Source: a virus (Duplodnaviria > Heunggongvirae > Uroviricota > Caudoviricetes). Taken from it: a DNA stretch of 28,390 bases. Below, piece after piece: positions 7,743 to 14,303 of this stretch. The translations under genes and the position numbers were made by a program. The notes below the pieces were generated by a model. That model was not told the DNA's origin, ran no database searches, and saw only the letters and a program-made list of their open reading frames with translations. Positions within the stretch are counted from its first letter, which is position 1. The number at the start of each line of letters is the position of its first letter. The stretch lies in the IMG/VR virus record IMGVR_UViG_3300010396_000001, positions 132,320 through 160,709 of that record. The stretch is one strand, 5' to 3'.

Positions 7743-10700
7743 ATGGCGCAGCGCAGGATCACCAGGCATGCCACCCGGCTGTCAGCAGCTCACGAGGCTG
7801 CTCTCGACGCCGTGTTTCACGTGAATCAGCGGGTGGTCACCCCCGAGGGCCTCACCGGCCGCATCCTTCTGGTCACCGAGTCATTCTCTCCCGGCAACAC
7901 CGAGTACCAGGTGGTGCTCGACAGTGGCATGGGCGGCGGCACCTACCTGACCAGCCAGCTGCAGCCAGTCCCCGACAGCCTGCAGGCGGCGCCCGGCACC
8001 TCGAACCTGCCCGCCGGGGTGACCGCCCGCTACCTCACCCAGGATGAGGCGCGCCAGGCGTGGCTCGACTCTCCCGCGGCGAAGGCAGGGCTGACCGCGG
8101 AGGAGCATCTCGCCCGGGCCTGCGCCGACCAGGACGAGGCCTTCCACACCGCGAACCTCGATTACCCCGAGATGGGCACCATCCTGCACGACCGGCCCGA
8201 CCCGGCCCGGCAGATCACGATGATCGGCTCCCGGCACACCGCGGCCCCGCTGCCCCACTCCCAGCTCAAGATGTTCACCATGCCGCACGAGAATCCTTCG
8301 TGTCCTACCTGCGGTTACCAGCGCGGGGACGACCAGGAGTACCAGTTCTCGCACTACAAGCACACGATGCAGGAGCGCGGCGAGTACGAGCCCCGCGAGT
8401 GCGAGCACTGCGGCGGCGACCTGAACGACCGCGACGAGCACGAGGATCACCATCAGCAGTGGCTCGCCGACCAGGACTGGTACACCGACTGGGACGCCGA
8501 GGGCCCCGGCGACACCCTGCACCGCGGTATCGGCGTCAGCCTGCCCAGCGGCCTGCACCAGCACGTGCACGACCAGTCCCGCCCTGTGGCCGAGCGCGCT
8601 CACGCGCTGGCGAAGCACGTCCTGCGCAATCAGGCCGAGGGCAGCCCGCACGGCGGTCTCGGCAACTTCTGGTCCTCCGACCCGGACGTGTCCAAGGTGT
8701 ACGCCGAGACGTCTGACCGTCGTTACGGCCAGCATGAGCCGAGCACTCCGGTCATGCTGCACGTGCACACCCCGCCGATGGAGCACATCGAGACCGACCC
8801 GGATACCCTGCAGCACTGGGGCGTGTTCTCCTATCACCGGGCCGGTAACCGTGAGGTACCCATCCAGAATCAGGCGCCCCTCAGGATCAAGGGCATCTCC
8901 TGGGCTGCGCCCGGGCACAGGCCCGAGGGGCCGCACTACTCGGACCCGAAGTGGCATGAGCCAGGCCCGCATCGCTTTGACCAGGACCCGGCCTGGACCC
9001 ATCACGAGTTCGGGGGCGAGGGCATCCGGGCGCACGCCGCTGGAGTCGTCACCGACCACATCGACGACCACGGCGATGCTCCCGACCATGGTCTGATCCC
9101 GCGCGCTGCCGACCCGGATTCCTACGACACGCGGTCCACTGAGGGCCAGCCTGACCCGACCTGGAATGAGGATCCCTACCGCCAGAAGTCAAAGGATGCC
9201 CCGTCGCCGAGCACCGGCAACGAGGGGCCCGATGGCACCGGCGGCCCGCCTGACGGCATGGGCCCCGGCGACGGCGGGATTCCCGCGATGGCCAGCCTGC
9301 TCGATGACCCGCGACGGCACCTGATCGAGGATCACGGCTACCGGCCCGAGGACGTGGAATCCCTCGGCCAGGCCCGGCAGGCTCACGAGGACGACCACGC
9401 GCCGGGGTCACACTGGCAGGAATGGGCTCACTCCGAGGACCTGCATGATCATGACTGGCCGGAGCATGACCCGGAAGACGACTGGGCTTATCTCGGGGAT
9501 GCGACTGGCACGCATGGCTTCACCGGCTCGCGCGCCGACATCGGCGATTCCTGGCACGAGTTCCGCAACCGCTCCCATCCTGATGCTCTGCACCGCGGCA
9601 TCCACGTCGAGCTGCCCGCCCACATCCACGACATCGTCCACGACCCGGGCCTGCCGCGGGCCGACCGGGCAGAGGTCCTGTCGGATCACTTCAGCCGCCA
9701 GGGCCTGGGCATGCACTGGACCCCGCACCTGGACATCGCCCAGCGCGCCATCAGCAACGCCGCCGACAAGGCCCGCGGCGGGTCAGGCTGGGACGACGAG
9801 GACTCCCTCAGCGACTGGGACGAGCCCGGTGACGAGGGCGCCCCGAAGACCGATGTCATGCTCCACATCCGGCGCCCCGGCGAGCGCAACGTCGTTCGCA
9901 GTCCCCGGCTGCTGCACGAGCACGGCATCGGCTGGCAGTTCTCGCCCGACGAGGCCGAGATGCCCCTGAAGCCCGGCTCCCCGGCCCGGCTCACCGGCAT
10001 CAGCTGGCGGCAACACGAGCCTGAGTACCCGATGCAGCCCTACGAGCACCACGATTTCGCGCGCCCCATGCGGCACGAGGCCCGCGTGCCCTGGACGGAT
10101 CACCAGCGCACCCTGCTGCATTCCTGGCAGGTCGTGCCCACCGTGACAGAAGGTGATTTCGTGCCGTCCTACAATTTCACCAATCACGTGCCAGTGACGG
10201 GGCCGGTCACTGAGCCCGAGCCGGAGGCTGAGCCGATGGAGGTCACCGCCGGGCTGGCCGGGTACCCGGAATACGAGGATCCCCGCGAGCTGCATCAGCA
10301 CCTGGATTATCATCACGGCGCTGAGCCGTGGAGCATGGAAATGCACGGCGACAGCCATGAGGAAATGCAGCGCTATCACCAGCGCCTGCACAGGGACGAC
10401 GAGCACCACCCGGTCTTCGAGCACCACCACGACCCCGGCGCCTACCGGCAGTCCGGCATCTCCTACGAGCACTTCCACCCGGACGAGGCGGAGCACCCCG
10501 GCCGCTCCGGGACGCCCGGCGACGTCGGCACGGCCTGGAAGGCCCTCCCCGAGGACGTCGCCACCCCGGAGCAGCACGCTGACCCCTCCACTCGCACCCG
10601 GGTCATGCACACGCTGTCCTCGCGCGCCGGCCAGGTGCGCGGTCACCATGAGCACCGCGCCTCGATCGGCATCCACGCCGATGCCGCTGATACTGAGGCA

Positions 10701-13700: not shown

Positions 13701-14303
13701 GGGATGGGCGAGTGGGGCGCCAGCCGGCGCGCGGGCATCCGGGCCCGGATTGCCGGCGACTTCCACGACGGGGCTCCGGGCGGGTACGCGCTCGATGCGG
13801 ACACCACCGGCGGCGGCCCCGGCATGAGCCAGCACGACGAGGACTCGCTCGGCTGGGACGAGCCATCGATCCAGACCATGGGGCAGCAGCAGTGGTCCGG
13901 CGGCGGTGCCGACTCCGATGAGGGGGCCGTCCCGGCCGGCCAGCCGCAGGGCCCGGCGATCGACGGCGGCGGCCTGGATGCCATGGCCTCGGCCGGCGAG
14001 CGCGAGATCATCGCGCAGTTCCAGGCCAGCGCGGCGGCACGCAGCCTCGGCACGGGCGGGGCTGCCAGTCCTGGCGCTGACTCTGGCGGCGGCATCGCTG
14101 CAGCAGCCCGCCACTTCCTGAGGACCGGCAAGGTACTGTCCGACGAGGAGGCAGGCGAGCTGATCGCCGAGGGCCGCGGGACCCGCGCCCGCAACCTCGA
14201 CCTGCTTGACCTGGAAGGCACCCATTACGAGGCGGAGGACGAGGCAATGAAGCGCCGCGGCCTGTCCCTGGACAATTTCGATGACGACCTGGTGCTGATA
14301 TGA
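7743..14303 (+). CDS. Giant polyvalent head-locus protein (2186 aa): SH3/KOW-like, C2H2-like fingers, two ART-like domains, ParB/Srx, SWIM, four His modules
   Basis: GGAGG RBS at 7734-7738. Motifs: LHRG...FWSSD...NREVP (~8490-9030); LHRG...HWTPH...DEAEMP (~9550-10080); PAIL...ISDGHHR (~11090-11460); CGCPW...CSH (12204-12278). The CDS is well supported; domain calls are by eye. Confidence 0.9.
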   Translation: MAQRRITRHATRLSAAHEAALDAVFHVNQRVVTPEGLTGRILLVTESFSPGNTEYQVVLDSGMGGGTYLTSQLQPVPDSLQAAPGTSNLPAGVTARYLTQDEARQAWLDSPAAKAGLTAEEHLARACADQDEAFHTANLDYPEMGTILHDRPDPARQITMIGSRHTAAPLPHSQLKMFTMPHENPSCPTCGYQRGDDQEYQFSHYKHTMQERGEYEPRECEHCGGDLNDRDEHEDHHQQWLADQDWYTDWDAEGPGDTLHRGIGVSLPSGLHQHVHDQSRPVAERAHALAKHVLRNQAEGSPHGGLGNFWSSDPDVSKVYAETSDRRYGQHEPSTPVMLHVHTPPMEHIETDPDTLQHWGVFSYHRAGNREVPIQNQAPLRIKGISWAAPGHRPEGPHYSDPKWHEPGPHRFDQDPAWTHHEFGGEGIRAHAAGVVTDHIDDHGDAPDHGLIPRAADPDSYDTRSTEGQPDPTWNEDPYRQKSKDAPSPSTGNEGPDGTGGPPDGMGPGDGGIPAMASLLDDPRRHLIEDHGYRPEDVESLGQARQAHEDDHAPGSHWQEWAHSEDLHDHDWPEHDPEDDWAYLGDATGTHGFTGSRADIGDSWHEFRNRSHPDALHRGIHVELPAHIHDIVHDPGLPRADRAEVLSDHFSRQGLGMHWTPHLDIAQRAISNAADKARGGSGWDDEDSLSDWDEPGDEGAPKTDVMLHIRRPGERNVVRSPRLLHEHGIGWQFSPDEAEMPLKPGSPARLTGISWRQHEPEYPMQPYEHHDFARPMRHEARVPWTDHQRTLLHSWQVVPTVTEGDFVPSYNFTNHVPVTGPVTEPEPEAEPMEVTAGLAGYPEYEDPRELHQHLDYHHGAEPWSMEMHGDSHEEMQRYHQRLHRDDEHHPVFEHHHDPGAYRQSGISYEHFHPDEAEHPGRSGTPGDVGTAWKALPEDVATPEQHADPSTRTRVMHTLSSRAGQVRGHHEHRASIGIHADAADTEADAARRKAESHWARHLSGQHGWTPDRLARVRQYGESFADNHAAAHDAGTADHDHDPAADARREHQVSEQFGAPSHPFSRAMSPGHGGHSHRDPASAMERAQNIVPEDVRDFHAGTFPLSRLNALDPRTALQRKIADDVYGQLAKDYPHHAISWVHDVPWEGPGTTALHDIDWDDRRSWAAYNQPERIARVSKKANKKIDRGEDPKPAILMRPAGDRRSRISDGHHRALGALLDGRALHSYTAQVPDAGGPWDTMHDQQFTEQEGGSPNAAERGPDGSPEDREQLHRDVEGRVATLPSAGSDEEDGLGDSLDFAAEDDDAPQAGQEPGGSAGDSLPGPPGSPSGVNPAGPPGSPPVTYGAPMTQGSSDGRRERQKGLILQTPQDAQAEAEKKAQLEELGDDNSDSDSDSDSDSDESTPPSKKEKKAALRLFREAARSPAFGFEFIASWRDVVAKAKRLRTAGRVRITAVAAGYVIGEVGGDHDVYESSVQRRPGHPNSILAFACGCPWASFHQDKSYPGRLNGRPCSHAYAVHLESLSRRMNGRPMTADPELPGWLTQNVVVKSLPPWGQGGWAETWTAPATARPFYASLRSAESAPAHEAARLLLDGGTSPGAVRALMTLAGVAGSDRLMARHLETAHGWPADYLDGLREGDEPLDYFHDRSHAAGSASKIPHRHEQEPGSPGPLRLVEGVEFAHEENPYGAGFDPDHYKIDEWGGVYHDKGTYQNQFENPGELLDHTEPWRTPEPRHLSMLQAEADQANAPWGSDNTAPHSPTKPYGATEPPQKDMDPGSYGFLAGPDPENWGEIQDNSAVQMPLGNEAVRHTADETRSLLVPTAPSPLPPDLNYPDVGDFHERQESFPYADQANAAGPSTSITPRDPQGIRMEEALQRALAEVTAAGVKPMPKLAPKGNEPPDEPDHPHDCTCTECEYSRYHSKHGRPVWATASPSDAEAPQLSGGLGADLKDEPDAALDPHGLTGGDTPVGGGDAGTGADAPSPAATAGMGEWGASRRAGIRARIAGDFHDGAPGGYALDADTTGGGPGMSQHDEDSLGWDEPSIQTMGQQQWSGGGADSDEGAVPAGQPQGPAIDGGGLDAMASAGEREIIAQFQASAAARSLGTGGAASPGADSGGGIAAAARHFLRTGKVLSDEEAGELIAEGRGTRARNLDLLDLEGTHYEAEDEAMKRRGLSLDNFDDDLVLI
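11901..11936 (+). repeat. (AGCGAC)6 in-frame microsatellite encoding (Ser-Asp)6
   Basis: Six perfect 6-nt units read directly from the sequence. Confidence 0.97.

Follow-up and report, generated by a model that had tools for sequence, protein, structure and literature searches.

A predicted polyvalent protein with two ADP-ribosyltransferase-like modules encoded among the head genes of an uncultured tailed phage

What does a protein of 2186 amino acids (aa) do among the head genes of a tailed phage? The question is raised by the final 28.4 kb of the IMG/VR virus record IMGVR_UViG_3300010396_000001 (Caudoviricetes; positions 132,320 to 160,709 of the record, 28,390 nt, hereafter the window), where an open reading frame (ORF) at 7743-14303 on the plus strand encodes the protein that we call P0001. 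An earlier note, made from the sequence alone, had presented it as a polyvalent protein, putatively virion-delivered, with two ADP-ribosyltransferase (ART)-like domains, a ParB/sulfiredoxin (Srx) domain and a SWIM zinc finger; the ORF list and the translation give exactly the extent and length claimed there. The explanation that we favor, with a probability of roughly 55%, is that P0001 is a polyvalent effector, made with the head, carried in the capsid and released with the DNA, whose ART modules would modify host proteins.

The two ART-like modules lie at aa 249-428 (nt 8487-9026) and aa 604-780 (nt 9552-10082); coordinates are those of the window, and all features of P0001 are on its plus strand. 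The family hidden Markov model (HMM) matches them at 1.6e-58 and 8.9e-53, respectively. Their paralogy is confirmed by BLASTP of aa 230-450 against aa 590-810 (E 3e-17, 31% identity, 160 columns). The motifs quoted in the earlier note are all present: LHRGI at aa 259 and 616, GLGNFWSS at 305 and GLGMHWTP at 654, GNREVP at 368 and DEAEMP at 736, GISW at 384 and 752, HHEF at 420 and HHDF at 769, and, for the other domains, DGHHR at 1207, CGC at 1488 and CSH at 1510.

The same genome holds two more copies of the module, in two giant proteins encoded 20-26 kb upstream that are themselves polyvalent, with Arr-ms, ParB_N, NUDIX and 2H domains. When a profile built from all four copies in the genome was run against 1.84 billion cluster representatives, 371 proteins were retrieved at E <=0.001 (77 at <=1e-30), mostly giant and with up to six copies each; a standalone member, P0201, was found on a 1.9-kb contig. 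Over 378 distinct domain instances, the ART-like motifs quoted above turned out to be the conserved columns of the family. The Arg of H-R-G is kept in 289 of 315 non-gap instances; G-x-H-W-[TS] has Trp in 341 and Ser or Thr in 325, the His of V-x-x-H-A is seen in 322 and a Pro in 333, and G-I-S-W is likewise conserved. The catalytic-loop motif proposed earlier, [ND]-x-E-x-P, does occur, with its consensus to be corrected to [E/D/N]-x-E-[VI]-P because, in register, the N of N-R-E stands opposite the first E of E-A-E: the second Glu is present in 318 of 338 instances, and the first position is E in 209, D in 71 and N in 30. Copy 2 carries the full family consensus (R618, H658-W659-T660, E737-A-E739).

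A fold could be assigned to the module from its AlphaFold2 model, built with a 64-sequence alignment (mean predicted local distance difference test score, pLDDT, 86.7; predicted template modeling score, pTM, 0.84). The model fits the ART core fold, which is defined by a split beta-sheet with an NAD cleft, and places the Arg on strand 1, the W-S pair on strand 2 and the Glu on strand 5. An R / S-T / E-x-E arrangement is the signature of arginine-directed protein ARTs, the R-S-E clade. Copy 2 shows this strand arrangement in full; copy 1 shows it as R261, S311 (of W310-S311) and N369-x-E371, without the first Glu. The key residues are spaced by 50 and 60 positions in the module, and by 54 and 51 in cholera toxin. 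In a Foldseek search against the PDB the E-values were weak (0.03-0.1), with leading rows that were all R-S-E ARTs: TreX, TreTu, cholera toxin, LT, pertussis S1, CARDS and PltA. In an exhaustive structure search over 48,161 chains, nearly all matches belonged to the ART superfamily, the best full-length ones being protein-modifying toxins, and a structure search of the Atlas gave unnamed phage clusters (template modeling score 0.49-0.55) together with the FRG domain of the ART superfamily. Judged by the model, its structural neighbors and the conserved residues on the expected strands, the module very probably has the ART-superfamily fold, and the R-S-E interpretation of the earlier note is supported.

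The segment aa 1105-1610 was folded with a 46-sequence alignment. Its first part, aa 1110-1250 (nt 11070-11492), is predicted to have the alpha+beta fold of ParB/Srx with a conserved Arg-containing nucleotide-binding loop; its D1207-G-H-H-R1211 motif is invariant or nearly so in 21 homologs. Pfam gave weak matches for these ParB-like members, DUF1015 in 13 of the 21 (best E 0.0038) and ParBc_2 in five; none was above the gathering score, and P0001's own segment had no match. Pfam searches with the whole of P0001 and with eight pieces of it returned nothing for the ART-like or ParB segments. The second part, aa 1405-1610 (nt 11955-12572), is a predicted SWIM-finger domain whose putative metal ligands C1488, C1490, C1510 and H1512 (nt 12204-12278) are invariant in 46 sequences and fit the C-x-C-x(n)-C-x-H pattern of SWIM (PF04434). 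PHROGs yielded two families of unknown function on P0001, both on the SWIM part. All three domain calls of the earlier note thus stand on fold and conserved-residue evidence.

Homologs cover P0001 unevenly: the N-terminal 170 aa, the SWIM domain and the last 450 aa are common to 50-90 proteins, and the middle is variable. By sequence, P0001 is an ortholog of gp96 of mycobacteriophage Myrna (1155 aa), with BLASTP E-values of 1e-15 for the SWIM domain and 5e-10 for the C-terminal tail. The conserved N-terminal region (aa 1-170, nt 7743-8252) contains an R-H-x-T-R-L-S N-terminus, a beta-rich segment and a DYPEMG..DRPDPG box; it is common to ~58 orthologs, with the shared start M-x-R-R-I-x-R-H-x-T-R-L-S, and weakly to Myrna gp96. 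A search of a language-model atlas with the N-terminal 240 aa was uninformative (every score <=0.85). The conserved C-terminal region (aa 1730-2186, nt 12930-14300) is kept in ~62 orthologs and in Myrna gp96, with 44% identity to the latter over aa 2088-2165. Its last ~100 aa contain A-Q-F-Q-A, D-I-A-A-A-A-R and A-R-N-L-D-L-L-D-L-x-G-T-H-Y, the third of which is shared with gp96 as A-R-N-L-D-x-L-D-L-x-G-T-H-Y. Gene order agrees as well. In Myrna, portal, gp96, gp97 protease fusion, gp98 and major head protein follow one another, and the order is the same here, with the neighbors of P0001 matching gp97 and gp98. P0001 therefore has the N-terminus, SWIM domain, C-tail and position between portal and protease/capsid genes of what we call the gp96-type chassis.

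The cultured-phage versions of this chassis differ from P0001 in what they carry. Myrna gp96, its cluster C1 homologs (Blubba gp85) and Rhodococcus phage E3 gp76 are orthologous in the N-terminal region, the SWIM domain (32-40% identity) and the C-terminal tail, and occupy the same position between portal and protease-fusion/capsid genes; the cultured-phage versions are 1155-1267 aa long and, unlike P0001, have neither ART-like nor ParB-like modules. Blubba gp85 is annotated as 'LysM-like peptidoglycan binding protein' and has its LysM after the SWIM domain, again unlike P0001. Myrna does possess a diverged ART-like copy, not in gp96 but in a separate 477-aa protein, gp78 (NC_011273.1, 30941-32374), with LYRG ... 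GRHWTT ... EQE and a profile E-value of 4.8e-8. This copy was detectable by profile search only; tblastn of ART-like copy 2 against cultured phages gave no match even at E 0.1, nor did megablast of the P0001 gene. Myrna gp78 is annotated only as 'ParB C-terminal domain', and its C-terminal part resembles the N-terminal part of the 1879-aa polyvalent protein of the genome studied here.

Among 55 orthologs, defined by the SWIM domain together with the C-tail, the cargo varies widely. Neither an ART-like nor a ParB-like module is present in 27; one to three ART-like modules occur in 20, and a ParB-like module is found in 20 as well. In 32 of 34 cases the ART-like modules stand ahead of the SWIM domain. 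Other orthologs carry Arr-ms, ART-PolyVal or GNAT, and the gene order around P0031, an ortholog of 1425 aa with neither module, is unchanged on its 163.5-kb contig. Cargo is gained and lost module by module. A different sort of module is seen after the SWIM domain: LysM in Mycobacterium phage Blubba gp85 (5.7e-10; L010 5900-9703) and GDSL lipase in the metagenomic orthologs P0037 and P0054 (4.6e-18 and 1.1e-16). LysM and GDSL lipase act on the cell envelope, and their placement points to a second slot for cargo and to some contact with the cell wall.

Taken together, these results lead to the following scheme. P0001 would have as its base a conserved chassis protein of the head module, which belongs to the Myrna gp96 family of Ceeclamvirinae-like actinophages. 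This chassis consists of N-terminal region, SWIM domain and C-terminal tail, is produced alongside the head genes and probably brings the protein into the capsid. The cargo would have been put in between the N-terminal region and the SWIM domain: two R-S-E-type ART-fold modules, a ParB/Srx-fold module for nucleotide binding or nicking, and short His-rich modules. At infection P0001 would exit the capsid with the DNA, its ART modules would ADP-ribosylate host proteins at the expense of host NAD+, the acceptor expected for the E-x-E copy being arginine, and DNA would be the substrate or ligand of the ParB/Srx and SWIM parts. The outcome would be host takeover or suppression of defence, for which T4 Alt is the worked example. 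Virion delivery, as the earlier note had suggested, is argued for by the synteny with the Myrna head module and by the envelope-directed modules of the orthologs; the latter fit a protein released at entry and provide the best indirect argument that the chassis may leave the virion at that stage.

Several observations weigh against this explanation. Neither MuF nor another known capsid-targeting domain was detected with Pfam or PHROG in the whole protein or its pieces. Ejected internal proteins are less documented for myoviruses than for podoviruses, and the hosts here are myovirus hosts. No virion proteomics was found in the literature for the Myrna gp96, Bxz1 or E3 homologs; the Myrna proteins identified in PMC7150772 are gp98 and gp99 only. 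As for the ART-like modules, Pfam reported no ART model on 64 family members and no ART family on eight further proteins, including standalone small members, Myrna gp78 and Myrna gp96; PDB sequence-profile searches with 4- and 64-sequence profiles gave chance-level matches only, and no sequence-profile link to any curated ART family was found by Pfam, PDB profiles or hhalign against T4 Alt. Membership in the T4 Alt/VIP2 clade (PF03496) was considered and rejected: the hhalign probability was 0.1 with E 0.56 and only the E-x-E strand aligned, the Alt side of the comparison being T4 Alt alone since the 120 listed Alt matches were 96-100% identical and hence gave no diverse profile. That the Arg, Ser/Thr and Glu would gather around an NAD pocket is read from their strand positions in the model only. 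In copy 1 an F replaces the family-conserved His of G-x-H-W and N369 replaces the first Glu, so this copy may be altered or weakened.

Could the chassis be mainly structural, a scaffold or core protein or an organizer of DNA (through SWIM and ParB), retained in the capsid or in the cell that makes it, with the enzymes acting late in the same infection? This is unlikely in our estimate, although neither here nor in Myrna can a separate gene for a scaffolding protein be recognized between the protease fusion and the capsid genes, and the long disordered stretches, which are acidic and rich in Pro and Gly, are reminiscent of scaffold or internal-core proteins. That the 27 orthologs without ART-like or ParB-like module do without this cargo points the same way. 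However, the cargo types (ART, ParB, GNAT, Nudix) are those of injected polyvalent proteins and argue for action early in the next host (PMC5512222), and the LysM of Blubba gp85 and the GDSL lipases of P0037 and P0054 make little sense in a protein that never leaves capsid or cytoplasm.

The chemistry may also be of another kind, and we give no better odds to modules that are not protein ADP-ribosyltransferases and would instead ADP-ribosylate nucleic acids (DarT, Scabin, pierisin and Tpt1 being the comparators), hydrolyze NAD+ or an NAD-derived defence signal, or bind without activity. Recurrence of the module with DNA-binding ParB-type modules, in P0001, the 1879-aa protein and Myrna gp78, favors such a role, as does the departure of copy 1 from the consensus, but the arginine-directed R / S-T / E-x-E signature is present in most members, and it is protein-modifying toxins that match the model best over its full length. 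Still more improbable is a chance resemblance due to a common alpha/beta arrangement in a domain with some other function: besides the near-exclusive return of ART-superfamily members from the exhaustive search, the three clade-defining residues are the most conserved polar positions of the family, lie on the expected strands and are spaced much as in cholera toxin. A capsid-carried polyvalent effector with protein-directed ART modules is thus the explanation that we retain.

How does P0001 so understood compare with known systems? ART and ParB are hub domains of the polyvalent proteins of phages and conjugative elements (Iyer et al. 2017, PMC5512222), and head-packaged ARTs and polyvalent proteins encoded near portal and capsid genes are established (PMC5512222, PMC9503650). 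P0001 resembles the polyvalent proteins of PMC5512222 in joining unrelated enzyme modules (ART, ParB/Srx, zinc fingers) on one giant polypeptide, in its virion-gene context and in the shuffling of modules between relatives; at least two disparate activities are predicted for it (two ART-like modules, ParB/Srx, SWIM), and it is encoded among virion genes. It differs in that its repeated ART-like module has the R-S/T-E signature without a Pfam match and in that its carrier is a gp96-type chassis instead of a MuF/MPTase/ArdC hub: of the hub or delivery domains MuF, MPTase, ArdC-N and DarA, none was found in P0001 by Pfam or PHROG, whole or in pieces. With T4 Alt, a head-packaged, injected, Arg-specific ART (PF03496), P0001 shares the E-x-E R-S-E type, late expression and a presumed capsid route. 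Alt, however, has a single ART domain and lies beside baseplate genes, and its packaging has been demonstrated, whereas for P0001 packaging is proposed here. The A subunits of cholera, heat-labile and pertussis toxins and the Rhs toxins TreX and TreTu have 10-18% identity to the module, at a root mean square deviation of ~4 A. Relative to these toxin R-S-E ARTs, the phage module has its own H-R-G, G-x-H-W, V-x-x-H-A and G-I-S-W positions and a C-terminal H-H-x-F hairpin.

Head-packaged ARTs and polyvalent proteins are believed to be decisive during the first minutes after infection, but few of them have been tied to a defined carrier. New here are the chassis orthology, the cargo slots and the characterization of an ART-like family that is large but unnamed, since it has many members on which Pfam, PHROGs and PDB sequence searches are silent; annotation pipelines and surveys of viral NAD+ systems would miss it because it is absent from Pfam and PHROGs. 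The known ART repertoire of polyvalent proteins is thereby widened from the H-Y-D to the R-S-E type. A more general proposal, which we put forward tentatively and hold less likely than the effector role of P0001 itself, is that in large actinobacterial myoviruses the Myrna gp96 family serves generally as a chassis for the delivery of cargo and offers two slots for exchange. Slot 1, which follows the N-terminal region and precedes the SWIM domain, may take cytoplasm-directed enzymes (the unnamed R-S-E ART, Arr-like/HYD2 ARTs, ParB/Srx, GNAT), and slot 2, after the SWIM domain, may take envelope-directed modules (LysM, GDSL lipase). If so, the unnamed family would be the first R-S-E-type ART to serve as a regular building block of polyvalent proteins, and the conserved N- and C-terminal peptides would constitute a new signal for capsid targeting and ejection. 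The 55 orthologs form a natural comparison series of one head-module protein with and without cargo. M. smegmatis is a host for Myrna and Bxz1-type phages, so that ordinary phage genetics can address how packaging is signaled and what the cargo does, and Myrna gp78 offers a cultured-phage handle on the ART-like family.

The genome around P0001 (160,709 bp, 68% GC) is rated complete. The portal protein gene (3390-5681, plus strand; PHROG 2833 portal, 7.4e-142) encodes a protein 37-39% identical to its counterparts in cluster C mycobacteriophages and in related myoviruses of Gordonia and Rhodococcus, from which we take the source to be an uncultured actinobacterial relative of the Ceeclamvirinae. 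The earlier note had placed P0001 next to the portal gene; in fact it starts 2 kb downstream, with four small ORFs on the minus strand between the two. The P0001 gene has a Shine-Dalgarno sequence, GGGAGGA at 7733-7739, 4 nt before its ATG, and a GC content at third codon positions of 0.88, typical for genes of the same genome. A perfect palindrome, CAAGGTTCCTTG, occupies 7684-7695, in the intergenic region between the divergent genes and 48 nt ahead of the start codon of P0001.

Small accessory genes follow the P0001 gene, and then a gene for a 1442-aa protease fusion (19947-24275, plus strand; PHROG 18299, Pfam), the Myrna gp97 ortholog, which joins a prohead-protease-like N-terminus (45% identity to the N-terminus of Myrna gp97) to GNAT and DUF7178. 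It also contains a His module, zinc ribbons and an acidic tail; the head protease, too, seems to carry cargo. Myrna gp97 is recorded as 'tape measure', a label that is probably wrong. Next come the gene for a minor capsid protein (26935-27618, plus strand; BLASTP 2e-20 to gp98), orthologous to gp98, the minor capsid protein of Myrna (PMC7150772), and the major head protein gene (27674-28390, plus strand; PHROG 2522 major head protein, 2.4e-53), which continues past the end of the window and of the record. The record ends cut this gene and so fit an assembly that is circularly permuted or bounded by repeats better than they fit true physical ends; the record is classed in IMG/VR as having direct terminal repeats, and no end-to-end exact identity of >=50 bases was seen at its ends.

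Three smaller features of P0001 remain to be described. Between the N-terminal region and the first ART-like module lies a tentative zinc ribbon (CPTCG at aa 187, CEHCG at aa 220; nt 8295-8432), with weak Pfam zinc-ribbon matches (E 0.075-0.4). A low-complexity Pro/Gly/Asp/Ser linker at aa 1275-1400 (nt 11565-11942) is predicted to be disordered (pLDDT 29-48 in the composite model). The His-rich module is cysteine-free, with the pattern [R/E]-x-H-[LM]-x3-H-G-[YWF] ... H-x3-H ... H-x-H. By regular expression and inspection, its first copy (H-L-x3-H-G-Y ... H..H ... H.H) is at 9294-9512; there are four copies in P0001, starting at aa 526, 853, 1000 and 1618 (9294-9512, ~10275-10517, ~10716-10892 and 12570-12758). 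Two further copies are in the protease fusion (aa 382) and in a 341-aa Lar-like zinc-ribbon protein encoded upstream of the portal (1735-2760; aa 182), and the pattern could represent a metal-binding or docking module common to head-locus proteins.

A short motif, [H/Q]-F-[G/Q]-A, recurs at nine sites in the two upstream polyvalent proteins (genome positions 106136-118181), for example as LLEHFGA. P0001 has it as EQFGAP at aa 1053 (~10899-10916), preceding the ParB module, and as AQFQAS at aa 2091 (~14013-14030) in the conserved C-tail, where the Myrna gp96 counterpart reads IVAQFQAA. The motif could mark a module boundary or be a candidate protease site.

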